Part shown: piece by piece, positions 2,399-41,339 of the stretch
How positions within the stretch are numbered: position 1 is the first letter of the stretch
Layout of the letters: every line of letters starts with the position of its first letter
NCBI GenBank assembly: GCA_050949565.1
Contig: JBMNFY010000019.1
Coordinates: forward strand, 1 to 64,000
Direction of reading: 5' to 3'
DNA length: 64,000 nt
Origin: Kiritimatiellia bacterium
Lineage (GTDB): Bacteria; Verrucomicrobiota; Kiritimatiellia; RFP12; UBA1067
Notes under the pieces: generated by a model
Database searches by the model: none
The model's input: the letters and a program-made list of their open reading frames with translations, nothing else
What the model was told of the DNA's origin: nothing
Made by a program: the position numbers and the translations under genes

Positions 2399-3403
2399 AT
2401 GGCAGCACTGTTCGAAAGTTATGCGCGGCGCATCAAGCAGATTGAGGCCGTGTGCAAGAAGTATGGGATCAAGGATCTCCAAGAGGCGCGCAAACTGTGC
2501 GTAGCTCAGGGTTTTGACCCCTACGAAATCTGTACCTCGATCCAGAATATCTGCTTCGAGAACGCGAAGTGGGCCTATGTGTTGGGCGCGGCGATCGCGT
2601 TGAAAAAGGGATGTGTCAAGGCGGCTGAAGCGGCCGAGGCCATCGGCGAGGGACTCCAAGCCTTCTGCATCCCCGGTTCGGTGGCGGATGACCGCAAGGT
2701 CGGTATCGGGCACGGCAATCTGGCCGCGATGCTGTTGCGTGAAGAAACCCGCTGCTTCTGCTTCCTCGCAGGGCACGAGTCGTTCGCGGCAGCCGAAGGC
2801 GCGATCGGTATCGCCCTCAAGGCCAACAAGGTCCGCACCGCCCCGTTGCAGGTGATCCTCAACGGTTTGGGCAAAGACGCGGCCTACATCATCAGCCGCA
2901 TCAACGGCTTCACCCATTGCGAAACGAAGTTCGACTACGCGACCGGCAAACTGAAGGTCACGAAGACGACCCCGTTCTCCGACGGGCCCCGCGCGGACGT
3001 CCGTTGCTACGGCGCGGATGATGTGCGCGAAGGTGTGGCGATCATGTGGAAAGAGAAGGTGGATGTCTCTATCACCGGCAACTCCACCAACCCCACGCGC
3101 TTCCAGCACCCGGTCGCAGGTACCTACAAGAAAGAGTGCATCGAGAAGGGCAAGAAGTACTTCTCAGTCGCTTCCGGCGGCGGCACGGGCCGCACGCTGC
3201 ATCCCGACAACATGGCGGCGGGGCCGGCTTCGTACGGCATGACCGACACCATGGGCCGCATGCACTCCGACGCGCAGTTCGCGGGCTCCTCCTCGGTGCC
3301 GGCGCACGTTGAGATGATGGGCTTCCTCGGTATGGGTAACAACCCGATGGTCGGCGCAACCGTCGCAGTGGCCGTCTCGGTCGAGATGTCCCACAAGAAG
3401 TAG
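2399..3403 (+). CDS. GGGtGRT family protein (function unknown)
   Basis: Signature SGGGTGRTLHPDN; AAGGAG RBS before ATG 2399. Confidence 0.9.
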   Translation: MAALFESYARRIKQIEAVCKKYGIKDLQEARKLCVAQGFDPYEICTSIQNICFENAKWAYVLGAAIALKKGCVKAAEAAEAIGEGLQAFCIPGSVADDRKVGIGHGNLAAMLLREETRCFCFLAGHESFAAAEGAIGIALKANKVRTAPLQVILNGLGKDAAYIISRINGFTHCETKFDYATGKLKVTKTTPFSDGPRADVRCYGADDVREGVAIMWKEKVDVSITGNSTNPTRFQHPVAGTYKKECIEKGKKYFSVASGGGTGRTLHPDNMAAGPASYGMTDTMGRMHSDAQFAGSSSVPAHVEMMGFLGMGNNPMVGATVAVAVSVEMSHKK

Positions 3404-3413
3404 GGGTACGCGT

Positions 3414-3524
3414 TTTGGAGTGCGGTGACAAGAGCCGCGCTGTACGCGGGTCGCGGCACCGCTTTCCGGCCCGTCTACGCCAAAGCGGCGTCGTGAGGAA
3501 TACCGCTTGCCGCCGCACTCCAAA
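3414..3524. repeat. REP/REPIN-like palindromic intergenic element, copy 1
   Basis: Terminal IR TTTGGAGTGCGG...CCGCACTCCAAA and internal CCGCTTT/AAAGCGG arms; homologous copy at 31207-31335; lies between convergent genes. Confidence 0.8.
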
Positions 3525-3540
3525 TCTATTCGCTTGAGCT

Positions 3541-3571
3541 CCTAAATCCTAAATCCCAAATCCTAAATCCT
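3541..3571. repeat. heptamer tandem repeat (CCTAAAT)x4
   Basis: cctaaat cctaaat cccaaat cctaaat cct; overlaps the PqqD stop codon. Confidence 0.8.
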
Positions 3572-3838
3572 ACTCGCCAAGCCCCGCTCAACGAGATGCG
3601 CGAGAAAACGGTCAATCTCCGCACGCGCTGTCTCGTCGTCGACCTCGTACTCCTCCAGCATCGCCTCAAGCAGTTCGGCTTTCGTGACCGGTCGCTCCAA
3701 CTGCTGCCAAAACCAGAGGCCCATGTCGTTCAGGCTGAACATTTTGGACTCGCCAACATGTAACACGATGAGGAAATGTTCACCCACGATCTCCCTCAAC
3801 TCGATATCCTTCGCCCGTGTAAAACGTGTGTCATCCAT
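3563..3838 (-). CDS. stand-alone PqqD/RRE-family protein
   Basis: 91 aa with LREIVGE..LIV, SLNDMGLWFWQQL and EYEVDDETARAEIDRFLAHLVERGL, typical of the PqqD fold. Confidence 0.85.
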   Translation of the reverse strand: MDDTRFTRAKDIELREIVGEHFLIVLHVGESKMFSLNDMGLWFWQQLERPVTKAELLEAMLEEYEVDDETARAEIDRFLAHLVERGLASRI

Positions 3839-3849
3839 ACTGATACTCC

Positions 3850-6591
3850 TTAGTGTTCTGCAACCGGTTTGTAAAAGCGACGCCGTGCATTCTTGTCGAA
3901 CGGCACCTCAATCTGCTTAAGCGGCCAATCACCAGGGATGGGCTCGGTCGACCATGTCTCCCCCCCTACCGGCCGCCACGGGAGCGGCACCCACGACGTA
4001 CTTCTCAGATCATCTGTCGTCATCACCCTGAATGCAATACCAGCCAGCGTTTCGACATTCAGCGCGAGGCCCGGTGCGGCAGAATCCGGCACTACAGCCA
4101 GCGGATCGTAGGTTCCGGCCTGCGGCAACACCAATCGGCTGATCCGCATCCCGCCCACAAGCGCCCCGGTGCCGGCCAGCGCCTCGATCCACGTTGCAAA
4201 CCCGTCACCGTCTTGATCAAGAAGATCTGCGTAAGGGTCCCCCCCCAACCCCTGCGCCAGCAACCAATCGCTCGACGTTCCGCGCGCGGTTTGGTCAGGC
4301 CGTATGTTGAGCGATGGGTCACCCAAGAACACCATGTGCCGCAGGGAGAGTGCGTGGCTACCTCCCAGCGCGGCAAAAGTTCCGCACCAGACATCTCCCA
4401 GACGACGCGCACCGGTCGCCACCTGAGCACCAAAGGCCTGTGAGTAAAGCTTAGCCTGATCCGGCATCGTATAGCCAGCCGTGCTGATGACAGCCGCGAA
4501 ACCCGACACCGGATTCCTGACACCCGCCTCGGCGATCGCCTGTTGCTCTTGCCTCAGATCAAGTAGCGTCCAACGCCCCATGCGGCACCCCATCAGTAGC
4601 GCCACGGGCGCGAACGGCCATGTGGCGGTTCGGAGCATCGGGGCATCAAACAGCTTGCCGTCCCTTGTGTAGCCTGCAATGGTGTCACTGGAATGACCGA
4701 CGAAATAGTAGAAGCCGGCCCCCTCCTGCAACTCATATGAAACACCCGTTTCATGATACGTGTCACGCCACAACGGCGCCAGACGGCTCTGGTCCGGTGC
4801 GGGATAAAAGGTTTCGAGCCACCACCCCACGCTCGGGAAAGAGACGGCGGTAGATTCGGCAAACCCGGTGAAGTTCACGTATTTTGAACCCGTGTTCTGC
4901 CAATCGCAAGAGAACACCGCCTTACGCTTCCACGTCTCGGTCAACTCATACCGGATGGTCTTCTCCACCATGCGCGTCAGTTCCAGCGCGTTCGTCGCCA
5001 AAAAACGCCCGACCGCCACCTCCGGCACCGCGTCCCCCTGCACATCACCCAATACCGGATCATTCGGCAACAACAACGCGCCGTTTGCCGCCGCGTCCAC
5101 CTGCGACACCAAATACAGCGGAAACAAGGCTGGGTAGGCCCCCGCCTTGCCAGGCGGGAACACCTCCAATTTGTAATCGCTTCCGCCATGCCCGGCAAAC
5201 AGCAGATAGCGCAGCACCTGACCGCCCGCCTGCGCCACACCCGCCGCACTAAAGCGGCGGAAGGCCTCCGGATGCACCAAGCCGTCCGTGAAGGCGTTGT
5301 AGAGATCTTCCGCGTCGATCACCCGCGCGCGCAACCCCTGCGCCTCGCGAAACTCGGCCAGCGGTGCCGCCGCTTCCGCGAACCCCGGCCACCACCGGCG
5401 CGGCGGTGTCACGATCGCCAACTCGGGCATTTCGTCCGGGGCACTCCAGTCGATCACACGCGCACCACTGACGGACGGTTCAAAAGCGCCCTGCGACCGA
5501 TCGAAAACCACATAGCGCGCCGTCGCCCCGCCACATGCAAACAGCGCCTGCCAGCCCCCCTCCCCGTCCGGCACCACGCACACATCGGACAACGCTACCG
5601 GTTGAGCCGCGTCCGTCACCTCCCACACCGCCAGATTCTGTGTCGTGAAACCACCCGCCGCAATCACCGGGCCCTCCCCGCCCGTGCACTGCAGCATGCC
5701 CTCCTGCGCCGTGTAATATCTCGGGTAGTGCACTGTCGCGGCCAGCAACATAAAATCGTTAACGACCTGCGTACCGCCCGCATTTTGAACAGTCAACTCA
5801 ATCGTCCCGTTCGTCACCGTGCCCGCCGGCACAACATAGTCAAACGTCACCGCTTGCTCACCCGACCACCCTTGTGAACCGCCGCTCACCCCATTCACGC
5901 AAACTTCGCACAGATGTTCATCCGGCGTGGGGAAATCGTGGTATGACGCCAGTTCGACTCGCACGGTAACGCCCGTCACCGCCTCGGCGCACCATTCCGG
6001 TAGCACCACTGCCCGGGTTTGCGTACGTGCCGCTGCATACGTGGACCCGATCCACTCGCCAAAATTCAGTACATTGGTGAGCGTACCCACTGAACTGCGC
6101 CGGTCACGCGGCTCATAAGGCGCCAGAAAGGCTGCGCGGCAGGGCCTGTCAGACATGAACCAAAGATTGGTCGCGCCGCTTCCCGGCGCGGCCGCTTCTT
6201 GCGGCATCACCGCCCCATCCTCCAACGTCAGCCAATAGACATTTTCCGGTGCGTAAAGCTCGCTTGTCGGCTGGCCGTAAAAAAACAGGGCATCCCCCTC
6301 CGTGCGCCACGTCACCGCCGCACCGCCGCATGCGAGCGCCACCCCGCCCTGCGCCATCGCCGCACGCACGGTGTCCGCATCCCAGCCTGAGACCAGCGCC
6401 ACCTCGTCGGCGGTCACGCGGTAAACCCCTGCGTCGCGCACACCGATCCGCACACGATCCGCCCCCTCAACCGACGTCCAAGGCACCACGCGCGGCGCTA
6501 CGCCGATCCAGTGCTGCGCACCCAAGGCCAGCATCGGCCAGCACACGGCCAACGCCCAGCGCACACGTCCATTGGATGTTCTTCCTGTCAC
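3850..6591 (-). CDS. secreted C25 (gingipain/PorU-like) cysteine peptidase
   Basis: Signal peptide; VRIGVRDAGVYRVT N-domain; YLLFAG and PEVAVGRF; catalytic FVGHS and LLMGC; FLGDPSL; DQDGDG motif; C-terminal RRFYK. Confidence 0.85.
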   Translation of the reverse strand: MTGRTSNGRVRWALAVCWPMLALGAQHWIGVAPRVVPWTSVEGADRVRIGVRDAGVYRVTADEVALVSGWDADTVRAAMAQGGVALACGGAAVTWRTEGDALFFYGQPTSELYAPENVYWLTLEDGAVMPQEAAAPGSGATNLWFMSDRPCRAAFLAPYEPRDRRSSVGTLTNVLNFGEWIGSTYAAARTQTRAVVLPEWCAEAVTGVTVRVELASYHDFPTPDEHLCEVCVNGVSGGSQGWSGEQAVTFDYVVPAGTVTNGTIELTVQNAGGTQVVNDFMLLAATVHYPRYYTAQEGMLQCTGGEGPVIAAGGFTTQNLAVWEVTDAAQPVALSDVCVVPDGEGGWQALFACGGATARYVVFDRSQGAFEPSVSGARVIDWSAPDEMPELAIVTPPRRWWPGFAEAAAPLAEFREAQGLRARVIDAEDLYNAFTDGLVHPEAFRRFSAAGVAQAGGQVLRYLLFAGHGGSDYKLEVFPPGKAGAYPALFPLYLVSQVDAAANGALLLPNDPVLGDVQGDAVPEVAVGRFLATNALELTRMVEKTIRYELTETWKRKAVFSCDWQNTGSKYVNFTGFAESTAVSFPSVGWWLETFYPAPDQSRLAPLWRDTYHETGVSYELQEGAGFYYFVGHSSDTIAGYTRDGKLFDAPMLRTATWPFAPVALLMGCRMGRWTLLDLRQEQQAIAEAGVRNPVSGFAAVISTAGYTMPDQAKLYSQAFGAQVATGARRLGDVWCGTFAALGGSHALSLRHMVFLGDPSLNIRPDQTARGTSSDWLLAQGLGGDPYADLLDQDGDGFATWIEALAGTGALVGGMRISRLVLPQAGTYDPLAVVPDSAAPGLALNVETLAGIAFRVMTTDDLRSTSWVPLPWRPVGGETWSTEPIPGDWPLKQIEVPFDKNARRRFYKPVAEH

Positions 6592-6649
6592 ACGTTATAT
6601 TTAACCACACCGTTACCAACGAAGGGAACACAATATTGGTTTTTGATAT

Positions 6650-7642
6650 TCACTGCTTTCTTTTTCGGAGACCACGCCACAGGAGAAGGGCAACGAAGAT
6701 ACCCGCGCCGACACCGACAGCGAGCGGGACAATTGATCGCTTTTGCGCCGGTGGTGGAACATCGGGCGTTTCCGCGATATGAGGGGCTTCGGTTTTTTCT
6801 GGCACGTTGTTGGTGGGCGGGGGTGGCTCGGTCATGGCGGGTTCATGGGTGAAGGCGGGCGGGGGTGGAGGGAAGTCCGGCATGACAAGCCCGTATTTGG
6901 AGGGATCGACGCTGCAGACGGGCTTTCCGTCCGCGTCGAACGAGACGGCCATCGTCACCAGTTCGGGCGGGAGGTTGGTCGCGTCTCCGTATTTCGCGAG
7001 GGCCTGTTTCAGCAGGTCGTAGACATAGACGGCCTGCGGGCCGGTGTTCGCCACGGAAGGCAGAAAAGGCGGCTCGTTGGTCGACCAGCAATATAATCGC
7101 GTCTTCGAAAGATTTAGCACATTCGTGCCTGAGGCGCGCGCTTTCAGGATTCGGAGACTTTCCAACCCCGCATTCTTTGCAAAATCCAGCTTGGAAGGAA
7201 GTTCCGCGTATTTCTCAAGCAGAGGGAGATCGCTAGCATCCCCTTTTTGCGAGAGATACAACAGGCTGTAATCTACAAACCGCCAATCGGGATTGCCACT
7301 CTTTGATACGAGGAACTCCCTCGTCAGCCGTATGATGTCAGCGTCCCCGGGCGAACACATGTTGACACCATCAATTCTACAGATTAACTCCGTCAGAGTA
7401 GAATAGGTGTAGTTGTCATAAGGTCTGCCTTCCTGCAATATCTTTTTGTATGCCGGAAAATCGTGATATCCGGTGGCCGCCTGGTCTGCCAACCACTGTG
7501 CAGCGGGGATCTCATCAATTGATGCAGTCCATAATCGCACAACCCGCGCCATTGACTCGTCCTCAGGCAAGACATTGATCTCTCCAAAAGTCGGGAAGAG
7601 TGCCCAGAATGCGAATATTGACATAAGCCGTGTTTTTTTCAT
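6650..7642 (-). CDS. secreted, C-terminally anchored hypothetical protein; candidate immunity partner of the zincin tip
   Basis: AGGAGG RBS; signal-like MKKTRLMSIFAFWALF; Pro-rich linker; C-terminal TM plus RKRK; ATG overlaps the stop of the HExxH ORF. Confidence 0.65.
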   Translation of the reverse strand: MKKTRLMSIFAFWALFPTFGEINVLPEDESMARVVRLWTASIDEIPAAQWLADQAATGYHDFPAYKKILQEGRPYDNYTYSTLTELICRIDGVNMCSPGDADIIRLTREFLVSKSGNPDWRFVDYSLLYLSQKGDASDLPLLEKYAELPSKLDFAKNAGLESLRILKARASGTNVLNLSKTRLYCWSTNEPPFLPSVANTGPQAVYVYDLLKQALAKYGDATNLPPELVTMAVSFDADGKPVCSVDPSKYGLVMPDFPPPPPAFTHEPAMTEPPPPTNNVPEKTEAPHIAETPDVPPPAQKRSIVPLAVGVGAGIFVALLLWRGLRKRKQ

Positions 7643-8710
7643 TGTACATGTCCTCCTGATCGTAGAGTTGGAATTTGCTCGACATACAATCGTTTGGAAG
7701 CGCTCACATCCATGAAGGGGGAGGCTGTTGAAAACATGAGATTGCATTTATCTGATACGTGGGCGTAAATGCCGAGCGCATGACACAGTTCGTGCGCGGA
7801 AACGAACGGCGCTATCTGGCTGGCCGAAATGAGGCAGTGGTCCGTATACGGGGCATCCAAAGGATCTGTATACCAATAGGATGCGGTTGTGTGCCCCGCG
7901 ACTTCGGCTGCCGGCGTGCTCTCTTATGCCGGGCACAAAGATCAGGCAGCGGTTGCTGGCGCCGTTCGTGACTGAGGCCAGAGCGCTTCGTGAACGACCG
8001 ACACCGGGCGATCTGCGTGAGAGAGCTGGAACTTCCAGATTGTTCGTCGACGCAACATGCCAGTTATCGACATCCACCTGCGGCGGCGCGTCGAAGTACA
8101 CAAGCGAGCCCATCTCCACGGTGATGTTGGCCTGTGCGAACCTCTCCTTGGCCGAGCGTGACCTGTGCACGAGCGCGGACAGCGTGTCGATGCAGGCGAC
8201 GCCGTTGGTGCGCATGATCGCCACATCGACGCCCACGGACTTGACGTCCACGCCGACCGGAGCGCTGAACACGTTGGTCTGCCCCCACCCGTCGACGTAT
8301 GACCCGCACACGCTGCTCAAGAGTTGCGACAGGAAGAGGCGGTTGGTCGAGTCCGGCGCGACACCGTACACGGTCGTGTCGAAGTGCGCGTCATCCCAGT
8401 CCGAGACCAGCAGCAGGTTCGTGGACGCGAAGACGCCCGGCGAGACGCGGGGCAGCGTCATCACGCGCGATGCCGCGTCATACGCGGAATCGCCCGGATG
8501 CTCAGTCCAAAGGACGACCTCAACCGACTCGGCATCCGCGCGGCGCTCGTCGGTCACGCGGACGCGGAAGCGGTCCGCGTCCGCGCTTATGAACTCGCTC
8601 TGACGGAACACGGCGTTGGTCACGATATAACTGCCCGCCTGGACATACCCGTTGGAAAACGCGCTTTCCCATTTCGCGACTTGCAGGCTATTTGTGACGA
8701 CCGTAGTCAT
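7639..8710 (-). pseudogene. orphan C-terminal cassette with a zincin-like metallopeptidase motif (frameshifted)
   Basis: ORFs 7748-8710 and 7639-7860 overlap in different frames; the distal part has AHELCHALGIYAH plus a Met-turn-like NLM; no signal peptide. Confidence 0.6.
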
Positions 8711-8727
8711 GCTCTTTGGGGTTTAAT

Positions 8728-9876
8728 TCAGTTCGGATTCATGATTCGTCCCAGAAACAGGATGTTGCCCGAGCTGTTTTCCTGAATAAGAAAGAGAAAG
8801 GGATGGTCAGCACAAAAATGGGGGGGAAGGGACTCAAGAAAACTTGCAGCCGTACTGGCAGTCGCTTCGGTTCCCATTTCGTTGACTTCGATATACGTCT
8901 GGTGGATGACTTTATTGATGTACAGAGGCTTTTCGGTGATGCCACTGAAGTCGGCTTTGGGCGTGAAGGCCAATTTAAGCCCGAGTGCCTCAAGCGCAGG
9001 ATTGAGGATAGTGGAACCCCATGAGAATTTGAAACGCGGGATTCGCACAACCACTTCGGCGACTTTCATACGGGATGTCCAAGCCGCTAATGACGTAGCA
9101 GAAAGTTTCTCCTCCGCATGAGCGAAATCCTCGGCAGACTTCCCATCTGGGAGAATGAAAAGCATGGAAAAAGCGTTGCCTTGGTACGGAAGTCTGAGCA
9201 ACTGGAGTCCGTCGGTTGCGAGATAAGCAAAACGCCCCGTCTGCATCATTAACGGCACAAGGATTTGATCCGTCCCGTTGATGAAAAACGGCTCCTTTCG
9301 TGTGTCAGATAATTTGAATTGCGATTTCCAATTCCCTTTGAAATAGACAGCATTGATTAGCATCAGGCGGGTGCCTGTCTCAGGGGGGGCGGTGAGGATG
9401 TTCTGAATCTTGCCATTGGTCTGTTTCCCGACCCAATTGTTGATGCGAAAACGTACCGCCGAGGAGTCGTTGACAAAATCAACAGGGAACGGCGTTACGC
9501 CATATCCCGTCTTGAGGTGCTTGATGAAAGTTGGTTTGACGGGATATCCCTGTTGTAGAAAAAGGGCGCATGCAAGGTCAAAACGAACAGCTCCCAGATG
9601 GCGGGACAATGGGAACCTTCCGGGGACAGAGGGCGAATGTAGAACTTGTGCGAACTCCTCAGCGGTTTCGCCCTCCGCTCCTCCGTAAGCCATGGAAAGT
9701 GTCGCAAAGACGCTGACAGGCGAGATGCAAAGATTGCCTGATCGGTGGCGCACTTGTTGGTAAAGATCACATCCGAAGGCGTTGATTGGCGACAAACCGC
9801 CGTCAGCGCAGACGGTCAACGCATGACTCGCCACAGTAATGGAAAAAAGTGTCAGCACCTTTGTTTTTAAAGACAT
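8728..9876 (-). CDS. secreted serpin
   Basis: NLCISPVS, INNWV..QTNGKI, LINAVYFKGNW, hinge EVNEMGTEA, FCADHPFLFLI and ILFLGRI; signal peptide. Confidence 0.95.
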   Translation of the reverse strand: MSLKTKVLTLFSITVASHALTVCADGGLSPINAFGCDLYQQVRHRSGNLCISPVSVFATLSMAYGGAEGETAEEFAQVLHSPSVPGRFPLSRHLGAVRFDLACALFLQQGYPVKPTFIKHLKTGYGVTPFPVDFVNDSSAVRFRINNWVGKQTNGKIQNILTAPPETGTRLMLINAVYFKGNWKSQFKLSDTRKEPFFINGTDQILVPLMMQTGRFAYLATDGLQLLRLPYQGNAFSMLFILPDGKSAEDFAHAEEKLSATSLAAWTSRMKVAEVVVRIPRFKFSWGSTILNPALEALGLKLAFTPKADFSGITEKPLYINKVIHQTYIEVNEMGTEATASTAASFLESLPPHFCADHPFLFLIQENSSGNILFLGRIMNPN

Positions 9877-10581
9877 TGTGAATATCCTTTCTCCCCTTCA
9901 ATCACACCCGCCGAGCATTTCGCCAGTGGCGGCGTCCACGTAGATGCTCACCCAAGGAAAGCCTGTGCCCTCCGGCTTCTGGAAGGCGTTGTTCCAGACC
10001 AGCGCGACCTCGTCCCACTTCGGCTCGTAGTCAGAAAATCCGCTGTCGTCTGCAGGGCGGATGTAGTTGTAATTTGGGCTGATGTACTCCAGTCGGTTGC
10101 TGTGGAACGTAAGCTTCGGAGTCAGCTCTTTCACCGGAAAGTACTTCTTGAGGTATTCAAAGCCTTTTTTTCTCCCCTCTTCGGATGTCAGCACGACCTT
10201 CGTTGTGAGATTCGTCGGTATCTGGTAGAGACAACTGAACCATTCTCCGAGGGGGTATCCCGGCAGGTCGGCAATATGGACACCAACGGGATAAAGAGTC
10301 GGGTAGCCGTTGACACAAGGCGTGAAAGCGAATTCCCATACACCGTGAAAGAAACCGAACGAACGGCACTCGAACTTCGTCTTGTCCCAGAGGTTGGACA
10401 CCCCAAACATAGCTGCGTACTCAGCGGCTTTCAGCCGCGCTTCGCGCTCGTTGGTGTGGATCGGCTTGTGGTCGGGAACACTGTAACAAACGTCTGGGTA
10501 GCGGTACACGTAGTTATTGACGATCAGTACAGTATCAGAGCCATCATCCAGAAACTCAAGAGGCTCTTGCAAAACCCCCTC

Positions 10582-10630
10582 GTGACATGGGCGTCCCGCC
10601 CATGAAACACGGGCAGGATGCCCGTGCCAC
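10582..10630. repeat. REP-like palindrome doublet inside the IS end
   Basis: CATGGGCG-tcc-CGCCCATG and CACGGGCA-gga-TGCCCGTG hairpins. Confidence 0.7.
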
Positions 10631-10801
10631 GCCTGCACGCAAGGGATTTTGCAGGATTTTCTGACGAAGAGGCGCAGCGGTTGCTGAAAAACGGACGCGA
10701 CAGGGCGTTTTTCCCGTTTTTCGGATGTTTCCGGGCAGACCCCGGCGCCTCCGCCCGGTCGCGGGCGGGTTTTCAGGGAGGGCAGTCTGCCGCGGGGCCG
10801 G

Positions 10802-11917
10802 TCAGGGAAGCATTCTGAGCATCTGCTCGGCGGCGATGACCAGCAGCCCGAAGGCCAGATGCGCCGCCACCTTCGCCGGGCCGCGCACCCGGACGTTCCG
10901 TCCGCCGTGCTCTTCGTGCAGATGGCTGTTGACGCGCTCGACGGCCGTGCGTTCGTGGTAGCGCCGGGCTTCCGCCGGGGAGAACTCGATCTTCTCGCCC
11001 CGGCGCGGGTTGTGGTCGATGAGCGCCACGTGCCCCAGCCGCGCCGACATCTCGCGGATCTCCTTGGCGTCGTAGGCGGCGTCGGCCAGATCATAGAGGT
11101 TGACGATCCGTCCGGCGGTCATCTGCGCCAGCGGGATGGCGGCCTGGCTGTCGTGCAGGCTGGCGGAAGTGAGTATGAAGCTGACCGGGATATCGCCGTC
11201 GATCACGTCCAGATGGGCCTTGTAGCCGCGCCAGCATTCGGTCTTGCCCTGGCTGTTGCGCTTGCAGCCCCAGTCGCATGCGCGGGGCAGATCGGCGAGA
11301 TTCGCGGAGAGGTCGCGCTTGAGCTGCCGTTGCAGCCGGGTGGGATCCGGCGGAGGAGTCTGGGGCTCGTCTTTGCGGCGGCGTCCGCGCCTGCCGCGCT
11401 TCCTCTCGCGCGGGGCGCGGGGCTTGGCCTCGGCCTTCTCGCGGGCGTGGATCGCGGTCGAATCGCGGTTGACGTGGCCGGCGAGCTTGTCGCCGTAGTG
11501 GGCTTCGAGCAGCGCCTCGTGGATTCGCTGCGGGCGGCCGTCGCGGGCGAAGGCGTCGAAGGCGCGGGAGAAGGTCGCCTCCGAAGGCACCTCGCCGAGC
11601 GTCTCCCATCCGCAGAGGCGGCGCAGGGTCGGACGGTGGCGGATCGCGTCGATCAGGTCGCGTGTCGTGGCGAAGTTCCAGACCGCCTTGGCGATGAAGG
11701 CCTTGCAGAGCGCCAGCCGGTCGCTGGGCGGGCAGCCGTTGCCGACCCAGCGGTAGGCGGCCATGTGGTCCTGCGGCGCGCAAAGCTCGCAGACGGCCAC
11801 GAACTGCCGATGCTTCTCGTCGAGTTCGCCGATCTCGTCCTCCAGCATGGGGAACAGCCACGACTGGATGCTCTCCCAGAGTTCGCCAAGGGATCTGTGT
11901 TCCGATGTCGTCTTCAT
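10802..11917 (-). CDS. DDE transposase (DUF772/DDE_Tnp_1 type)
   Basis: LRRLCGW..VPSEATFSR, RDSTAI, GYKAHLD, ADAAYD and RTAVERVNS motifs. Confidence 0.9.
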   Translation of the reverse strand: MKTTSEHRSLGELWESIQSWLFPMLEDEIGELDEKHRQFVAVCELCAPQDHMAAYRWVGNGCPPSDRLALCKAFIAKAVWNFATTRDLIDAIRHRPTLRRLCGWETLGEVPSEATFSRAFDAFARDGRPQRIHEALLEAHYGDKLAGHVNRDSTAIHAREKAEAKPRAPRERKRGRRGRRRKDEPQTPPPDPTRLQRQLKRDLSANLADLPRACDWGCKRNSQGKTECWRGYKAHLDVIDGDIPVSFILTSASLHDSQAAIPLAQMTAGRIVNLYDLADAAYDAKEIREMSARLGHVALIDHNPRRGEKIEFSPAEARRYHERTAVERVNSHLHEEHGGRNVRVRGPAKVAAHLAFGLLVIAAEQMLRMLP

Positions 11918-11972
11918 GCGCCAAGGCTCCTTCGTTCGATGCGCACACCCGTTCTTTCGGGCGACAGAGCCT

Positions 11973-12001
11973 TTATAACATATTGCGCGGCAATAGTCTA
12001 C
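11973..12001 (-). promoter_or_regulatory. putative promoter of the outer transposase
   Basis: TAGACT-N17-TATAAA on the minus strand. Confidence 0.45.
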
Positions 12002-12025
12002 AACTATTTTCAAAAAAACGGGGGG

Positions 12026-13482
12026 CGCGGTATGTCATAGTCATGGACACCGTAGCCAAAATCGCGGTGTCCGGAAATCAAGCGCATCCGTCAAATACTG
12101 GACACCGTGCTAGAATCGGCTCGCATGAGAAACGAGATGTCACGGAAAGCCACGATGGAATACGTCGGCGCGAAGCGTCGCGCCTATTCAAAACTGAAGA
12201 GCAAGAAGGCCAAGAGTGCCGCGATCGACGACTTCTGCCAGGTCACGGGGGCCGAGCGCAAATACGCCATCCGGCTGCTGACCGGCAACCGGAAGTACCG
12301 CGATCACGCCGGGCGCGGGAAGACGTACACGCCCGGGGCGGAAGCCCTGTTCCTGCGTCTCTGGCGCGCCTCGGGACGCATGACGCCCCAGTACCTTGTG
12401 ACCGTGACGGGCCGCCAGATGGCCGCGCTGCGCGAGCTCGAGCATGTCGACGAGGCGGCCGCGGCGCAGGTTCTGCGCATGAGCGCGTCGACGATGGAGC
12501 GCATCCTCCGCAAGCACCCGCGCGAGGCCCCGCGCCGCCGCAACCGCCGCAGCGGGGCGAACGCGCTGGCGTCGAGCGTCCCCTGCGTCCCGGGCGAGGC
12601 GCTGCCGCCCGCCGCCCCCGGCGACACGCAGGTCGACACGGTCGCGCTCTGCGGGGGCGACATGAGCGGCAACTTCTTCTGGATCCTCACGCTCACGGAC
12701 CGCCTGACGCAGTGGACGGAGCTGCGCTGCGTCTGGAACCGCGGCGCGGCCGCGACCAAGGAAGGCCTCGCCGACGCCGAGGCCGCGTTCCCGTTCCCGC
12801 TCACGGCCATGCACTCGGACAGCGGGCTGGAGTTCCTCAACGCCCACGTGCTCGGCTACGCGCGGGACCGCCCCCGCCCCCTCGCCTTCACCCGTTCCCG
12901 CCCCGGGAACAAGAACGACAACGCCCGCGTGGAGCAGAAGAACGCCTCCGTCGTCCGCGAGTATTTCGGCTACGAGCGCATCGACCGCATCGAGCTCAAG
13001 AAGGACATGGACGTCCTGTGCGCGAAGATATCGCTGTACAACAACCTCTTCCGCCCCTGCAAGCGGCTCATCTCCAAAACCAAAAGGCCGGACTCGCACG
13101 GCTTCTCCAAGCGTTACGACAAGCCCGCCACGCCCCTCGACAGGGTGATTGCGTCGGGACACGCGGACCCCGCCGTGATCCGGCGTCTTACCGCGCTCCG
13201 CGAAAAGACCAATCCGATCCGCCTCCTTGAGGACATCCGCCGCCGATACGCGCTGATCCTGCGCAAGCAGAACAAGCTCGCCAAACGCGAAGCGCAAGGG
13301 ATGACCACCCCGGGTTCCGCGCCCTGTCCCGCCGGAATACCGGCGGGACAGGGCGCGGAACTCGGCCACCCTTCACGCCGTTGACCAGCCCCTCGTCCCT
13401 TGACCCCCTCGGTGTCCAGTATTTGACGGATCGTCACCGCCTCAAAAAAACCTACGGTGTCTTTTCTATTTGACGGACCGCG
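12026..13482 (+). mobile_element. inner IS with an integrase-core transposase (ISNCY-like)
   Basis: Ends CGCGGT...ACCGCG flanked by GGGGGG on both sides (candidate TSD); subterminal inverted motif TCCGTCAAATACTGGACACCG / CGGTGTCCAGTATTTGACGGA plus degenerate second copies. Confidence 0.75.
12125..13384 (+). CDS. rve/integrase-core transposase
   Basis: RKYAIRLL, QVDTVALCGG, LTLTD, HSDSGLEFLN and TRSRPGNKNDNARVEQKN motifs. Confidence 0.9.
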   Translation: MRNEMSRKATMEYVGAKRRAYSKLKSKKAKSAAIDDFCQVTGAERKYAIRLLTGNRKYRDHAGRGKTYTPGAEALFLRLWRASGRMTPQYLVTVTGRQMAALRELEHVDEAAAAQVLRMSASTMERILRKHPREAPRRRNRRSGANALASSVPCVPGEALPPAAPGDTQVDTVALCGGDMSGNFFWILTLTDRLTQWTELRCVWNRGAAATKEGLADAEAAFPFPLTAMHSDSGLEFLNAHVLGYARDRPRPLAFTRSRPGNKNDNARVEQKNASVVREYFGYERIDRIELKKDMDVLCAKISLYNNLFRPCKRLISKTKRPDSHGFSKRYDKPATPLDRVIASGHADPAVIRRLTALREKTNPIRLLEDIRRRYALILRKQNKLAKREAQGMTTPGSAPCPAGIPAGQGAELGHPSRR

Positions 13483-14173
13483 GGGGGGTTGACAAACTCT
13501 CTGGAATATGCGAGGATACCTTTGTTCGTTTTGGGCGAGGCATGGTGCCGCGCAGAAAATGAAGGAGCAGGCTGGAGCGTCGGGCTCGCCCGCGGTGGGC
13601 GGCTGGATATTTCAGCCTGCCGGACGCCCCGCGAGGCAAGCCGTCAGGCGCAGCGTCGCGGGGGGTTTTGCAAGAGCCTCTCAAAATAACACTTTCTGGT
13701 TTTATCCGTGATATTGAAACTGTACCTGCTTTCAATACGGCTCCACGGCATCGACTCCGAAATCGGTTTGCGCGATATATCGACCTTGCTTCGCGTGAAT
13801 TCGTTCGTCCAGACCCCGCGGTGATACGTCCAGACAGGCTTGTCACTTCTAAACGGGTTCTTTGCCACAAAACAATTGTTGGTCACCCAGAGGCGTTCCA
13901 CCCACTTAAGGGCAAGGCTTTCATAATGTTCCGCCTGCTGTCGTGTGGGCGGCTTAGGCGGCGGGGGCGGGACAGGCCGTTTCCAACCTGCGGTTTCGGC
14001 CTCCCTCTCAAGTTCCTCCATGAGGGCAAGATGCTTGGCCAGAGCTTCTTCCTCTTTCTGCTTGCGACGTGCCTCGTCCGGTAAGGATGCGGCCGGCCTC
14101 CTGTCCGCGAAAATGCAGAACGCGACTGCCAAAACAAAAAATAGAACCAAGGTTTTCATTTTTTCCTTTCCGG

Positions 14174-14647
14174 TTAGAACGGCTTTTTGTTGAGGTCAAG
14201 AAAGACTGAGTTGTCCTTATCCACCAGATTTAGTCTCGCTTCGTAATACCAATAGTCACGTTTAGGATATTCAGTCCGTATTTTTCGACGCACTTCGTCT
14301 ACCGCCTCCTCAACCGTTCTCGTTTGCCCCGTCCCTGTGGAATCCAGTTCTTGCATCAGCATCTTGGGGATGCCGACGGAAAACTGGCGCACGACCTCGC
14401 AGTCCCATCCGATGTAGTTTTTGGCGTTGAGTTTCGTGCCGATGTCCCGCACGGCATGTGTGCTTTGCGTTTCATACTCGGGAGAAAAGCCGATTATTCT
14501 GGTGTTTTCGCCAAACCTTATCGGCCTGTACCATCGATCGGTCGACTCGCAGGTGTTCATGAACACGAGGTTGTATTCGAGGTCGTCCCGGGAGATGTCA
14601 GACGCCTTGAAATAATCCTTCGCATACCTGTTGTTGCCGACGGTCAT
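14174..14647 (-). pseudogene. orphan divergent C-terminal tip of the caspase/CHAT-like peptidase
   Basis: Homologous to 16802-17250 (LVFMNTC.STD, HAV.DIG..LNA.NY.GWDCEV, PKMLM.ELD, KDNS..LDLNKK) but begins after the catalytic-His strand. Confidence 0.8.
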
Positions 14648-15714
14648 TTGCTGAAGTCCAAGCCGCCAATCATTTCGCCTGTCACGGCATCCACGTAGAT
14701 AAACGCAGAGCGGGGATAATCCTCTTTATCCGTGGACTCAAACGACACGATGTACGCCAGCCGAACCTCGTCGCGTTTGGGGACGTAGTCGGAAATGCCG
14801 ACCCCGTAGTCAGAACTAGGATGGATGTAGTTGTAGTTCGGCTTGACGTACATCAGCCAGTTGTTGTTGTCGTACACCATCCGGGACGCGACTTCCTTGA
14901 AGGGGAAGTATTTTTTAAGGTACTCCTCCGCCTTGGATGCCGCCTGCCCGGAGGACAGGACTGCCCGCGACGGCAGATTAGTCGGGCACCAGTCCAGTGA
15001 AGAAACAAAATAGCCGAGCGGCATTCCCGGGAGGTCTGCCACCTCGAGGCCCACGCTGTACGGGGTTGCCAAGCCGTTTGTGTAAAAATGCCCGTCATAA
15101 ATCCACACTCCCTCCTCATACTGGAATTTGCGTTGCTTGAACTTCACGTTGTCCCACAAATTGTGGACGCCGAACATGGCCGCGTATTCGCTCATTTTCG
15201 CTTTGACCGCCTCCTCCGACGTATGGAGCGGAGGATGGTACGGCTGCCCAAGGATGTAAGGAAGATAAGGGACATCGTGTTGTCTGTAGAGCGGGTTGCT
15301 GATCGAAGTCACTTTTTCAGAGCGTCCAAAAAAATGCACGCAAAGTTCTCTCGAAGTTGCTACGGTTTTAGAATCCACAATAGGCTCAAACGACCTATAG
15401 ACAAACACATCGAAAAAATCGCTTCCGGGGCCAGCCGGGTCTTTACAAACAGCGGATGCCCGTCCCGATGTGTACAAGTCGGGGCGGTATTTCTGCAGGG
15501 GGTACCATTGCGGCTTTCTGTTGCTGAAAGGGTTGCCGCAAACATAATAATCCATGCCCGTCCACAGACGCTTGGCCCAGGCATCGGCCAGACGGATATA
15601 CGGTGCCTGCTCTTCCGCCGACAGCACGGGGGGGATCGGCTCGGCGCAGCAGGCTTCCGCCAGCGCAGAGGCGAGGATGATGAATGACAGACTTTGCTTC
15701 GCAATTCTGATCAT
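14644..15714 (-). CDS. secreted immunity-like protein with PepSY-like C-terminus, paralogue B
   Basis: Signal peptide; tandem paralogue of 15739-16791; ends IYVDAVTGEMIGG. Confidence 0.75.
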   Translation of the reverse strand: MIRIAKQSLSFIILASALAEACCAEPIPPVLSAEEQAPYIRLADAWAKRLWTGMDYYVCGNPFSNRKPQWYPLQKYRPDLYTSGRASAVCKDPAGPGSDFFDVFVYRSFEPIVDSKTVATSRELCVHFFGRSEKVTSISNPLYRQHDVPYLPYILGQPYHPPLHTSEEAVKAKMSEYAAMFGVHNLWDNVKFKQRKFQYEEGVWIYDGHFYTNGLATPYSVGLEVADLPGMPLGYFVSSLDWCPTNLPSRAVLSSGQAASKAEEYLKKYFPFKEVASRMVYDNNNWLMYVKPNYNYIHPSSDYGVGISDYVPKRDEVRLAYIVSFESTDKEDYPRSAFIYVDAVTGEMIGGLDFSK

Positions 15715-15738
15715 GATGGTCTCCTTAGTCGCCGACGG

Positions 15739-16791
15739 TCATTTGCTGAAGTCCAAGCCGCCGATCATTTCGCCTGTCACGGCATCCACGTAGATAAGCG
15801 CGGTGCAGGGATCGTCGTCTTTGTCCGTGGACTGAAACGGCACGGAGTACACCATCCGAAGCTCATCGCGTTTGGGAACGTAGCCGGAAATGCCGATCCC
15901 GTAATCAGAATCGGGGTGGATGTAATTGTAGTTCGGCTTGACGTACTCCAGCCAGTTGGTGTTGCTGTACACCATCCGGGACGCGATTTCCCTGAAAGGG
16001 AAGTGTTTTTTCAGGTACTTCTCTGCCTTGGATGCCGCCTGCCCGGAGGACAGGACCGCCCGCGACGGCAGATTGGTCGGGCACCAGTCCAACGTGGAAA
16101 TAAAATGTCCGAGCGGCATGCCCGGGAGGTCTGCCACCTCGAGGCCCACGATATACGGGGTTGCCAAGCCGTTTGTGTAAAAGTGCCCGTCATAAATCCA
16201 CACCCCCTCCGCATACCGGAGTTTGTGCTGCTTGAATTTTACGCTGTCCCATAAATCGTGGACGTCGAACATGGCCGCGTATTCGCTCATTTTCGCCTTG
16301 ACCGCCTCCTCCGACGTATGGAGCGGAGGATGGAACGGCTGCCCAAGGATATATGGAAGATAAGGGACGTTGTGCTGTCTGTAGAGCGTATTGCTGACGA
16401 TGCTCACCTTGTGGGAACGCCCCAGAAAATGCACCCTGAGTTCGCAGCGTCCCGTAATTGTGATGAGTGAGCGACAGACAACCACATCAAAAAAGTCGCT
16501 CCCGGGAAGGGCTGGAGCTTTGAATGCGGCACCCACCGGCCCCGAGGTGTACAAGTCGGGGCGGTATTTCTGCAGGGGGTACCATTGCGGTTTTCTGTTG
16601 CTGAAAGGGTTGCCGTGAACATAATAATCCATGCCCGTCCACAGGCGTCTGGCCCAGGTATCGGCCAGACGGATATATGACGCCTGCTCTTCCGCCGACA
16701 GCACGGGGGGGATCGGCTCGGCGCGGCAGGCTCCCGCCAGCGCAGAGGCGAGGATGATGAATGACAGACTTTGCTTCGCAATTCTGATCAT
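15739..16791 (-). CDS. secreted immunity-like protein with PepSY-like C-terminus, paralogue A
   Basis: AAGGAG RBS immediately after the stop of the large peptidase-tip gene; signal peptide; ends IYVDAVTGEMIGG. Confidence 0.75.
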   Translation of the reverse strand: MIRIAKQSLSFIILASALAGACRAEPIPPVLSAEEQASYIRLADTWARRLWTGMDYYVHGNPFSNRKPQWYPLQKYRPDLYTSGPVGAAFKAPALPGSDFFDVVVCRSLITITGRCELRVHFLGRSHKVSIVSNTLYRQHNVPYLPYILGQPFHPPLHTSEEAVKAKMSEYAAMFDVHDLWDSVKFKQHKLRYAEGVWIYDGHFYTNGLATPYIVGLEVADLPGMPLGHFISTLDWCPTNLPSRAVLSSGQAASKAEKYLKKHFPFREIASRMVYSNTNWLEYVKPNYNYIHPDSDYGIGISGYVPKRDELRMVYSVPFQSTDKDDDPCTALIYVDAVTGEMIGGLDFSK

Positions 16792-16801
16792 GATGGTCTC
16801 C

Positions 16802-29186: not shown

Positions 29187-31184
29187 ATGAAAAGAGATGC
29201 TTGCTTGTTTGCTTGGTCGGATCTGCGGTAAGTGCTTTCACGCGTGACCTCGTGTGGCTCGGCACAGATACCGATAACAACTGGGATCTCGTCACCGATA
29301 ACTGGTTTGTGAAAGGCGACGACACGAAGACACGCGTCTGTTTCGAGCCGGGCGATAACGTCTACTTCCTCGAAAGCGACTGGGTGAACCCTTCGACGCA
29401 GCTCGTCCGAACCAACACAACCGCATGGGCGAAGGAGTTCGATATCGGGTCGATCGTCATCAGCAACGACACCACGACCTTCACGTGGAAATGCAACGTG
29501 GGGAGCTACGTCGACGCTTTGTGTTTTCAGGCGACCTCTATCGACAAGTATGGCAATGGTGCTCTGGCGACCCCCTTCTGCTTCCAGTGGAACTGCGACT
29601 ACACCGTACATGGCGGGCGGTTCATCTCGTCCAACGGATCATCCTATCCCGTCGACCACCGTAATGACACGGGTTCCATGATCGTTCCGCGCACGGTCAG
29701 CTTCCTCACAGGGTCGACGTGGGATGTGACAGGAGGCGTGGGGTTCGGTGGTGCCGGCAACGGAGCACCGCTCCACGTGGTGTTCTCCAACGCAACGTTC
29801 AAGATCTCGCAGAGTTCGCGGTACGTGAGCTTGCCGAGGACAACGTTCTACGACACATCCTTCATCATCAGCAGCAGCGCGGAGGCATCGCGTGCACTGC
29901 TGTTCACCGGTGACATCGTCATCACCGGTAGCACACCGGCCGTTATTCCGGCCGGCCGCACAATGACCTTTGGTCGGAAGGATAGGATGCCCCTCGATGT
30001 AAGGGTCGATGATGTCACCGGCGATGACGCGACCGACTTCACTGTGGGGGGCATACTCTGTAATATGGATGTCATCTACCCTTCCGTCTCAGACAAGCCT
30101 TATTATTTCGGCTACGGTAACTTCAGGAAAACCGGTGCGGGCACAATGTCAATCACCCACCCCGACAACACGTTCACCGGTAACGTCGAGATTGCCGAGG
30201 GCACGTTGCGGCTCGACAACACCAGTTCGCCTAACATCCGCGACGGCTACAACTATCGGTGCAGTACGCTCGGTGCTGTGGATGGCTACGACCGGACGAT
30301 CACGGTCAAGAATGGCGCAACGCTGTTCACCGGAAACAATGTGCCGTTCGGCCTCGTCAATACGCCGATGAGCTTCAAAATCGCAGTCGAGGAGGGCGGT
30401 GCACTTACGTTGGGTCAGACACAGAACAACTTCGGCCAGCTTTCACTGGAGGGCGGCAACTTCTCGTACACAAACGGTGCCCAGGCAACCTGGATCGAGT
30501 ACGGACTGATGGCCATTGGCAAGAAGCTGTCCTTCTCCGGCTCGACACCCTATGACCTGCAAGTCCGCGGCACCCACAACGTCATATACCTCGGCTTCAC
30601 GCTTGACAGTCAACTTGACACAGAACCGGTCAGTCCGAGTCAGCCGCACCTTACAAACCTCTGGAGTGTGGTTGAGATCGAGGTCGCCGACATTACGGGC
30701 GATTCCGGCATTGACGCCGCAATCGGGCTGCCGATGCGCGACATGATCAACATGTGCTACCCGACCTACGGCAACAATCCCAACGGCTACACCTACGACC
30801 CGTGGAAGTACTGCTATTTCCGTGACGGTTGACGCCGGTGCCTTCCTGGGTGGCACGGGCACAGTCTCGGCGGTGACGTTGACGGACGGTGCGGGTTTCA
30901 TCTGCACGGCGAAACGCGGTCAGACGGACGTCCTGAAAATGCCGTCGCTGACGATGCAGGGTGCAGTGACGGTGCGCGTGCTCAATCCCGATGCGACCGA
31001 ATTTTCCACATTCAACCAGAATCTGCTGAAGGTCACTGGCCTGCCCGCATCCGTTGACTTTACCAACTGGAGCGTCTCGTTTGAAGGGGTCGAACAGTCA
31101 AAGATGTTTACCTTTGCGTACGATTCAACGACGGGCATCGTCTCGGCGCACTATGCGGGCGGCACGATGATTCTTCTTCAGTGA
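29187..31184 (+). pseudogene. secreted PATR-repeat protein, disrupted (frameshift near the start; frame break near 30820)
   Basis: FRKTGAGTMSI..NTFTGNVEIAEGTL repeats in 29201-30832; the tail 30822-31184 (LGGTGTV...GGTMILLQ) is in another frame; ATG 29187 is out of frame by one base. Confidence 0.65.
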
Positions 31185-35748: not shown

Positions 35749-35780
35749 TTCGCGCCAACGCGCAACACGCTACCTAAGCG

Positions 35781-35813
35781 AAAAAACGTCCCGCAGTCGC
35801 GGGACGTTTTTTT
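35781..35813. terminator. rho-independent (bidirectional) terminator
   Basis: AAAAAACGTCCCGC-agtc-GCGGGACGTTTTTT. Confidence 0.85.
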
Positions 35814-35904
35814 GGTTAAGAGTTGGTTTCAGGTTTCCTTTTTGACACGATTAGATTGCGGGCTTCGCCCGCGTTGGTTCCTTATTCAGGTTGCGGGCGA
35901 TGAT

Positions 35905-35943
35905 TTAACAAAAACTGAACAAAGCACTCATTATCAATTAACA
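35905..35943 (+). promoter_or_regulatory. putative PhoB/OmpR-type direct-repeat box upstream of the receptor
   Basis: TTAACA (35905), TGAACA (35916), ctcatt (35927) and TTAACA (35938) at an exact 11-bp period. Confidence 0.45.
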
Positions 35944-35993
35944 GTATTCCCGCATATTCTCTCAAACCAGGAACAACCAGACCTGAATAACCC

Positions 35994-39119: not shown

Positions 39120-39147
39120 CGGCTGATTCGAAAGGAAAGGGACGAAA

Positions 39148-39897
39148 ATGAGACAGGTGATAAGTTTGATATTGGCACTTGCGACATTTGCCGCATGGGC
39201 GCAAGAGGATCTGGATGCGGCCAAGCAGAGCATCGAGAAGTGGCTGGAGACAGAACGTCTGATCACGAAAGAAGAGCAGGACTGGCGCGTTGGGAAAGAA
39301 GTGCTTCAGGAGCGGATCGATCTTGTCCGTCGGGAAGTCGAAGCACTCAAAGAGCGCATCGCCCAGACAAAAAAGGACATGCAGGAAGCGGAAACAAAAA
39401 CGGCTGAGTTGAAGGCGCAGAACGAGGTGGTCAAGGCCGGAACGAAAAGTTTGTCCGATGATATCAAACAGCTTGAACTCCGCACGCTGGCCATGCTTCC
39501 CCGCACGCCGGAGCCGGTCCGTTTGCGGGTTAACCCGCTGACCCAGCGCATACCGACCAATCCGAAAGATTGTAGGCTGACGCTTTCCGAGCGGTATCAG
39601 AGTGTGGTGGGCACATTGAACGAACTCAACAAGGCTGCGCGCGAAATCTCTGTTTCGGGTGAAATGCGGCAGCTTGCCGACGGTCGCCAAGTCGAAGTCT
39701 CGGTGTTTTATGTCAGCCTTGCGCAGGCCTACTACGTGAACGAGAAGAGTGGCGTGGCGGGAATGGGCTTTGCTGGCGAGCGCGGTTGGGGGTGGGAAGA
39801 GCGTAACGATCTGGTCGAGCCCGTGTCGCGCGTGCTGGCGATCTATCGCGGTGAATCACCTGCGGCCTATGTCCCGCTTCCCGTCAAAGTGAAGTGA
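39148..39897 (+). CDS. DUF3450/TtpB-like coiled-coil periplasmic protein
   Basis: Signal peptide; coiled coil; LSERYQ, AQAYY and YVPLP; position in the TonB operon. Confidence 0.75.
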   Translation: MRQVISLILALATFAAWAQEDLDAAKQSIEKWLETERLITKEEQDWRVGKEVLQERIDLVRREVEALKERIAQTKKDMQEAETKTAELKAQNEVVKAGTKSLSDDIKQLELRTLAMLPRTPEPVRLRVNPLTQRIPTNPKDCRLTLSERYQSVVGTLNELNKAAREISVSGEMRQLADGRQVEVSVFYVSLAQAYYVNEKSGVAGMGFAGERGWGWEERNDLVEPVSRVLAIYRGESPAAYVPLPVKVK

Positions 39898-39907
39898 GAC
39901 CAAACAA

Positions 39908-41317: not shown

Positions 41318-41339
41318 AAACGGGAACAACGGACAACCT

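Follow-up and report, generated by a model that had tools for sequence, protein, structure and literature searches.

A predicted secreted serpin with a probable glutamate bait and no apparent helix D in the putative immunity-gene string of a polymorphic-toxin-like island from Kiritimatiellia

Few bacterial serpins have a known natural target, and the locus described here offers a candidate partner for one more. The window, a stretch of 64,000 nucleotides from a Kiritimatiellia bacterium (contig JBMNFY010000019.1), contains a serpin gene within a string of protease-like cassettes (Table 1). The original prediction had read the product as a serpin with a short, CrmA-like reactive loop and an acidic P1 residue, which might be an immunity protein against caspase-fold tips, the nearby C25 enzyme or a lost serine-protease tip. 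Which protease, if any, would this serpin inhibit?

Table 1. Features of the serpin gene and of the surrounding island (positions in the window).
Feature	Position	Strand	Basis or remark
PqqD-like (lasso-chaperone-like) gene, directly after the C25 gene	3563-3838	-	
C25 (gingipain/PorU-like) peptidase	3850..6591	-	PF01364, 158 bits; PorU models below cut-off
Exported protein, membrane-anchored by its C-terminus; probable immunity gene of cassette 3	6650..7642	-	Position and sequence
Cassette 3, metallopeptidase-like fragment in two frames	7639..8710	-	Peptidase_M10 E 0.0051, below cut-off
Serpin gene (I4 / PF00079), product of 382 aa	8728..9876	-	ORF, Pfam and model
Reactive centre loop EMGTEATASTAASFLESLPP, hinge Glu333 to Pro352	8821..8880	-	Alignments and homologue loops
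Probable P1, Glu348	8833-8835	-	Next residue, Ser349, is P1'
Pro/Gly-rich connector replacing helix D	9589..9639	-	Alignment and model
Predicted Sec signal peptide, residues 1-24	9805..9876	-	Read by eye from sequence
Putative immunity gene copy 3, 3' part (PepSY-like C-terminus)	9898..10559	-	45% to copy 1; C-terminal match to P0165
Composite insertion, 3.1 kb, splitting copy 3	10560..13680	.	20-bp terminal inverted repeats, 4-bp target duplication TTGA
IS5/IS1182-like transposase	10802-12013		Inside composite insertion
rve/IS481-like gene	12107-13384		Inside composite insertion
Putative immunity gene copy 3, 5' part, with signal peptide	13681..14159	-	N-terminal match to P0165 up to insertion
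Orphan tip cassette 2, C-terminal half of clan CD domain	14174..14647	-	44% to P0121 tip
Putative immunity gene copy 2	14644..15714	-	82% to copy 1; both with signal peptides
Putative immunity gene copy 1, directly behind tip 1	15739..16791	-	10-nt gap; 9 homologues
Tip 1, clan CD (caspase/CHAT/gingipain-fold) protease domain	16802..17518	-	Fold from 92%-identical intact relative P0121
Trunk of large surface protein	17391..21367	-	N-terminal hydrophobic segments, TSP3-like repeats, GC 0.715

The open reading frame is intact, and its product matches the serpin profile over positions 3 to 370 of 370 (residues 31-381; 353.7 bits against a cut-off of 27). The predicted model of residues 27-382 has a pLDDT of 92.3, with an unstructured loop at 310-321, and compares with serpinB1 (4ga7) at a TM score of 0.92. 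Among the representatives its top structural match was native miropin (PDB 5NCS; Z 42.5, rmsd 2.2, 350 aligned residues, 34% identity), tengpin being level within 1 Z. The product is thus a full-length serpin with the serpin fold and an exposed reactive loop, located where the original prediction had put it. Its N-terminus is basic, then hydrophobic (hydropathy 2.0), and ends in VCA; the predicted signal peptide was judged from sequence and hydropathy alone, without a dedicated predictor. The hinge of inhibitory serpins has the consensus ExGTEAAAA (PMC8233489), and the window serpin reads EMGTEATAS, with Thr and Ser in place of two Ala and Met at P16. ATAS at P12-P9 occurred in one of 119 homologue loops; these positions nevertheless all remain small, which supports the inhibitory type of hinge claimed earlier despite the three departures from the consensus.

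The segment leading from helix C to strand 2A counts 27 residues in the window serpin and in its relative P0002, and 33-53 residues (mode 38) in 62 of the 64 aligned rows. The model contains no helix between these two elements, and both alignment and model indicate that helix D has been lost in the clade formed by the two proteins. CrmA is probably devoid of helix D as well. It has been described as a minimal serpin (PMC7863939). Helix D loss, a shorter loop and the Thr/Ser hinge could also mean that the serpin inhibits weakly or not at all and serves mostly as a substrate, or that its gene is decaying along with the island, and it is true that the hinge departs from the consensus and that neighbouring genes are broken. 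However, the frame of the serpin is intact, its own cluster (P0001) has 24 member sequences and a representative that differs at 4 residues, none of them inside P17-P4', the loss of helix D recurs in P0002, which is 67% identical, and the model is confident. Moreover, 16-residue loops function in three known inhibitors, CrmA, C1 inhibitor and alpha2-antiplasmin (PMC4493575). We consider a weak or decaying serpin very unlikely.

The identity of the bait depends on the register of the loop. With hinge Glu333 counted as P17, Glu348 is the 16th residue. The earlier claim of a loop one residue shorter than that of antitrypsin, with Glu at P1, was reproduced with 6ee5, a PDB construct with the antitrypsin loop: the alignment opens a one-residue gap and sets Glu348 opposite the residue preceding SIPP. 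Plain conserpin (5cdx), however, aligns without a gap and brings Ser349 to the 17th place, so that the window sequence by itself allows two registers, cut at Glu-Ser or at Ser-Leu. We thus looked at the homologues. P0002 is the sole close relative among those listed (the next best reach at most 44%), and in its loop, ESGTEAAASTSVSGLLESIPP, Glu stands 17th, as is standard, with Ser-Ile-Pro-Pro behind it; the motif LE-S[LI]PP (hyphen at the bond) is common to both proteins. Among the 119 loops read of 120 listed homologues (P0113 was left out), L[ED]S was present in two, P0001 and P0002, an acid stood at the 17th place in two and at the 16th in seven, and two were equally short (at most 26 residues, counted from P17 up to the s4B Pro-Phe). 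A quick tree of 55 rows, comprising the window serpin and 54 of P0002-P0060, all of at most 470 aa, showed the window serpin and P0002 as a long-branch pair (SH-aLRT 100). Because P0002 keeps Glu-Ser at the standard place, L[ED]S is limited to this pair among the loops read and the two form a long-branch pair, we regard Glu348 as quite likely to be P1. The acidic bait would be shared and the short loop is not, because P0002 has its Glu at the 17th and not the 16th place; a short loop as a conserved trait was thus ruled out. Glu at the 16th place is uncommon, not unique: of 76 GTDB loops, read in 73 of the 80 loci listed (seven yielded none by pattern), 11 have an acid there, and Glu16-Ser17 occurs in three (L031, L074 and L076), at unrelated loci among the matches listed.

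The short loop had also been taken as a CrmA-like sign, and this argument found no support. The P0002 loop has the normal 17 residues, and a 16-residue loop is not diagnostic of a caspase inhibitor since C1 inhibitor and alpha2-antiplasmin share that length. The loop of CrmA (cowpox SPI-2) has 16 residues (PMC4493575), whereas that of the window serpin has 16 only if P1 is Glu348 and 17 if P1 is Ser. CrmA, which inhibits caspases across protease class (PMC7863939), has Asp at P1 (PMC8007001) and is intracellular, whereas the window serpin has Glu as its probable P1, no Asp in the stretch P17-P4' and a signal-peptide-like N-terminus. No kinship with CrmA was seen: the model best matches cellular serpins, viral ones reaching 11-34% identity, and the CrmA structure compared was a cleaved 245-residue chain only (Z 17.4), which is not a fair comparison. 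Judged by the absent Asp and the predicted export, the protein belongs to the serpins without being of the CrmA type, and any likeness to CrmA would be convergent.

Glu is also the P1 residue of SERPINB9/PI-9 and of myxoma Serp-2. The same residue stands at P1 of the tick serpin Iripin-4, for which granzyme B was the sole target among the proteases tested, weakly inhibited (PMC10167670). PI-9 inhibits caspases and granzyme B (PMC7863939, PMC4493575), and Serp-2 and CrmA also inhibit granzyme B (PMC7863939). These Glu-P1 serpins are eukaryotic or viral, whereas the window serpin is bacterial. Since their documented common target is granzyme B, a serine protease, Glu at P1 alone does not imply a clan CD target.

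Looking at the genes around the serpin, all lie on the minus strand in the order trunk with tip 1 (one large exported protein, 21367 to 16802), copy 1, copy 2, half-tip 2, the insertion-split copy 3, serpin, cassette 3, anchored protein, C25 and PqqD-like gene. The serpin ATG is 21 nt past the end of copy 3, and cassette 3 begins 17 nt past the serpin stop. Neither gap flanking the serpin holds a terminator-like match, promoter and terminator scans being at chance level, and Rfam gave no match over 3000-23000. Once the composite insertion is set aside, the serpin is the second gene behind tip cassette 2. The claim that it occupies an immunity-gene slot behind copy 3 thus stands on position, strand and short gaps. 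Its GC3 (0.56) is the lowest of 12 segments measured (the others 0.62-0.81), the seven genes outside the island ranging from 0.67 to 0.81. Inside the composite insertion, the rve-type transposase gene is oriented opposite to the IS5/IS1182-like element.

Copies 1-3 are exported proteins of one unnamed family whose PepSY signal is weak (E 0.014 in Pfam for copy 2, below cut-off; Atlas PepSY/YPEB clusters at 0.82-0.83 for copy 1, a lead only), each copy lying behind a caspase-fold tip or another copy, and are a candidate new immunity family by sequence and position. PepSY is a protease-inhibitory propeptide. An intact relative of copy 3, P0165, matches both of its halves, and the named relatives from Kiritimatiellia include P0160 (85%, a repeated immunity-like gene) and P0124, a tip homologue. 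Compared with P0123, the trunk as sequenced has at least four frame changes, one within tip 1, where a break near 17400-17430 leaves the first strand and helix in a different frame; sequencing error and decay are indistinguishable there because of the GC content. At 19200-19520 the trunk contains a Cys/His-rich stretch of repeated CxxHxC-like units in a frame of its own, and P0124 has a shorter Cys-rich stretch. Cassette 3 carries HELCHALGIYAH and a downstream NLM in its second frame; the third His comes one residue later than in what we take to be the usual metzincin motif. A profile built on 12 pre-tip regions gave cassette 3 -1.6 bits, where the best of 200 shuffles reached 3.0, and so did not support it as a swap on the same trunk. 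The anchored protein behind cassette 3 matched no Pfam or NCBIfam family. Elsewhere in the window, two exported PATR (passenger-associated transport repeats) proteins are each apparently split over two ORFs (22425-25500 and 29201-31184), and 33562-44516 encodes a surface protein, a TonB-dependent receptor, DUF3450, an ExbB-like and then, by eye, TonB-like and TPR-like proteins, which form an uptake cluster with no relation to the island.

Where several immunity genes follow a toxin gene, they have been read as remnants of earlier tip replacements (PMC3482391). With its orphan cassettes and immunity-gene strings, the island layout matches that of polymorphic toxin loci as far as sequence goes. 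It resembles in particular the Tox-Caspase toxins of Zhang et al. 2012 (PMC3482391), which are large exported proteins with a C-terminal caspase-fold domain, orphan cassettes and downstream gene strings; the immunity partners listed there for Tox-Caspase are Imm36 and Imm57, whereas the candidates here are a serpin and PepSY-like genes. The toxin role of the present tips and their exchange on this trunk are putative.

We then looked at the tips as a possible target. Searches with the tip yielded 5 longer homologues and 33 representatives, among which short pieces from the C-terminus are numerous. The model of the intact P0121 tip (pLDDT 87.7) matches SAVED-CHAT (Foldseek E 1.3e-6; Z 16.7, rmsd 2.8, 185 aligned), RgpB (Z 15.1), separase (14.3), MALT1 (12.8) and caspase-8 (12.4). 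By sequence, the tips gave only 2 chance-level matches to solved structures, the 33 representatives matched no Pfam or NCBIfam family, and Pfam C25 appeared at E 0.082 in one of 17 members; Atlas leads were CHAT on 13% of one cluster at 0.92 and C25 at 0.89. Conservation was scored over 36 sequences, several of them near-copies of the window tip, with P0157 (repetitive, likely a chance match) excluded. Among the sequences covering each position, the dyad is invariant (His69 in 21 of 21, Cys111 in 24 of 24), and Gly comes after the His in 20 of 21; the His-Gly follows strand 3 and the Cys follows strand 4. Tip 1 has its His-Gly near 17300 and its Cys near 17173; tip cassette 2 keeps MNTC and the loop-5 Arg and is devoid of the His-Gly. 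Model and sequence thus agree with the caspase-fold tips of the original prediction, as clan CD proteases with a His/Cys dyad. P0130 is an apparent recombinant, its first half like tip 1 and its second half different.

Three regions, helix 1/L1, L4 and L5, determine S1 specificity in clan CD; caspases carry Arg/Gln/Arg there, and MALT1 carries Asp/Asp/Glu (PMC4357240). The tips conserve Arg23 at the start of helix 1 (13/15), Asn109 two residues before the Cys (22/24) and Arg165 in the loop after strand 5 (28/29), which we place in the S1-forming regions by secondary-structure order, not by residue-level superposition. Conserved Arg, Asn and Arg where caspases build their acid pocket predict an acidic P1, which would fit the Glu bait, and bait and pocket therefore appear to match in charge. 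The tips also conserve acids nearby, Glu17 (16/16) and Asp160 (23/29). A complex prediction of the serpin with the P0121 tip scored 0.00 in two runs; as controls were not folded, it counts neither way.

The serpin could instead be an orphan immunity gene, the cognate partner of a tip since replaced, e.g. a Glu-specific serine protease, and be inactive on the present tips. Serpins mainly inhibit serine proteases. The serpin is second in its string as copy 2 is behind copy 1, the array is mixed and includes a metallopeptidase cassette, acidic-loop serpins do inhibit granzyme B (PMC7863939, PMC10167670), and tip replacement would account for such strings (PMC3482391). On the other hand, no serine-protease fragment was found beside the serpin when the island ORFs were scanned with Pfam, and the match in charge between bait and tip would then have arisen by chance; two of 119 homologues have an acid in the 17th position. 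We regard this as possible but unlikely.

The other protease at hand is the C25 enzyme, and that a bacterial serpin can inhibit gingipain K, as invoked originally, is borne out by miropin (bioRxiv 10.1101/2025.09.05.674453). The C25 gene lies on the serpin strand, its product belongs to the clan of the gingipains, and His and Cys motifs are present, with His-Ser instead of the usual His-Gly. Nevertheless, the gene is 2.1 kb downstream of the serpin with two genes between, and its GC3 (0.72) is like that of housekeeping genes; it is probably a resident at the island edge. According to the miropin study, gingipains cut after Arg or Lys and miropin requires a matching basic residue, inhibiting Kgp through Lys368 and sparing RgpB (bioRxiv 10.1101/2025.09.05.674453). 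The serpin loop, with no Arg or Lys, therefore fits a gingipain-type enzyme poorly. Nor did the C25 sequence of the window, taken alone, give a sign of an acid pocket, as Arg is absent both where helix 1 begins and from loop 5. The C25 enzyme is thus a weak candidate where the original prediction had included it, and we hold it to be the least probable of the explanations considered.

If the serpin belonged to the island by function, close homologues might be linked to similar loci, as had been proposed. The GTDB scan returned at least 80 serpin loci at 32-41% identity, with no close relative among the matches listed. None of the 80 listed loci matched any of 18 non-serpin island queries (tblastn) or the tip or immunity profiles, and among their 145 flanking frames no match to a clan CD family of Pfam was found (66 hit nothing, a few were other peptidases); the neighbours were unrelated and mostly housekeeping genes. 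Linkage was thus not seen, but relatives as distant as these put it to no real test, and it rests on one locus. Serpins were also found in 105 plasmid records, all below 60% identity (29-34% among the 15 matches listed), and in 2 phage records (31-35%). In L031 (6154-11988; Tannerella sp. MAG, JAVBNB010000090.1), a C10 cysteine peptidase lipoprotein, a serpin, a second C10 peptidase and a second serpin follow one another on one strand; the two serpin loops differ, both with acids near the 16th-17th place, and the array looks like a protease-serpin gene pairing with a clan CA enzyme. L063 (3209-5734, a WOR-3 genome) has two tandem serpins, and L077 (948-3586, a Kuenenia genome) a serpin and a serpin fragment beside a trypsin-like peptidase. 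At the level of titles and abstract openings, the papers listed gave no serpin as a polymorphic-toxin or interbacterial immunity protein, and no such role for serpins in Kiritimatiellae or their polymorphic toxins or for prokaryotic serpins by caspase-like genes. Neither 'serpin' nor 'PepSY' occurs in the first 300,000 of the 357,715 characters of PMC3482391, whose supplement could list one.

These neighbourhoods bear on a further explanation, in which the serpin is a general envelope guard against foreign proteases (glutamyl endopeptidases, or subtilases using the nearby Leu or Ser) and a mere passenger in an island that takes up mobile DNA. The unrelated surroundings of its distant relatives fit this well. 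So do most prokaryotic serpins, which have a transport peptide, an inhibitory hinge and a partner not known (PMC8233489), and miropin, which uses three adjacent bonds for broad inhibition (bioRxiv 10.1101/2025.09.05.674453). A passenger would not, however, be expected to share tight spacing and orientation with immunity-like genes. Moreover, the window serpin and P0002 make up a clade of two that evolves fast, has a bait of its own and has lost helix D, which suggests specialisation. A general guard seems to us rather improbable.

Taken together, the sequence and model data are best accounted for by a secreted inhibitory serpin acting as a secondary immunity factor against acid-preferring caspase-fold tips, to which we give a little less than an even chance. 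The serpin gene would have joined the immunity genes of a polymorphic surface-protease locus and be transcribed together with the cassettes, and its product would be exported. A tip of the caspase fold, from the same cell or a variant from a neighbour, would bind Glu348 in a pocket of two conserved Arg and one Asn and cut the Glu348-Ser349 bond; the cleaved loop would then insert into sheet A and the enzyme be trapped as a thioester, as with CrmA and caspases or miropin and gingipain K. The serpin would thereby form a broad second layer behind the PepSY-like gene that follows each tip. In favour of this immunity role are the tight position between copy 3 and cassette 3, the lowest GC3 measured, the LE-S[LI]PP motif kept by P0002, the clan CD fold of the tips with their conserved Arg/Asn/Arg, and the precedent of miropin, with a clan CD enzyme trapped one residue short of the usual bond (bioRxiv 10.1101/2025.09.05.674453). 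Against it, tips 1 and 2 each have their own PepSY-like gene behind them, so the serpin would not be the first-line partner; island genes were found at this locus and at none of the 80 listed distant ones; Glu16-Ser17 recurs at unrelated loci and the gapless conserpin register gives Ser at P1; the tips conserve Glu17 and Asp160 as well, with the S1 placement made by secondary-structure order; Iripin-4, with Glu at P1, inhibited granzyme B only, and weakly (PMC10167670); and the trunk-tip gene is broken as sequenced. That the small helix D-less, Glu-baited clade as a whole provides suicide-substrate immunity against acid-cutting caspase-fold tips of Kiritimatiellia polymorphic surface proteins, a convergent counterpart of CrmA and caspases in cell conflict, is a more tentative proposal, and we think it doubtful as it stands.

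Altogether, the serpin itself was confirmed and its interpretation as an immunity protein is partly supported, on grounds other than those first given: the immunity-gene slot, the clan CD tips and the likely Glu at P1 speak for it, whereas the short-loop argument and an acid pocket in the C25 enzyme found no support and homologue linkage was not seen at the 80 distant loci listed. New beyond that prediction are the loss of helix D, the polymorphic-toxin-like cassette string and the basic residues in the S1-forming regions of the tip. The closest comparison is with miropin of Tannerella forsythia, like the window serpin an exported bacterial serpin (export being predicted here), which traps the clan CD enzyme Kgp at its P2-P1 bond, i.e. 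at the 16th place (bioRxiv 10.1101/2025.09.05.674453), the place also of Glu348. Miropin, however, uses a Lys bait against proteases of another species and of the host, whereas the window serpin has a Glu bait and no helix D, and its gene, unlike that of miropin, sits in a cassette array with a candidate target. In the KLIKK peptidase/potempin pairs of T. forsythia, too, secreted peptidases are genetically coupled to inhibitors in the envelope, which shield the producing cell (PMC9890683); potempins are small beta-barrels with genes that lie upstream of those for the enzymes and outside cassette arrays, whereas the window inhibitor is a serpin.

If the immunity role is wrong, the gene is one more secreted bacterial serpin within a mobile island. 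If it is right, serpins would join the immunity families of polymorphic toxin systems, a new job for serpins, bacteria would possess an acid-preferring caspase-fold family, and a natural helix D-less serpin would be at hand for folding studies. The unnamed tip family, with its predicted basic S1 pocket, may outrank the serpin in interest.
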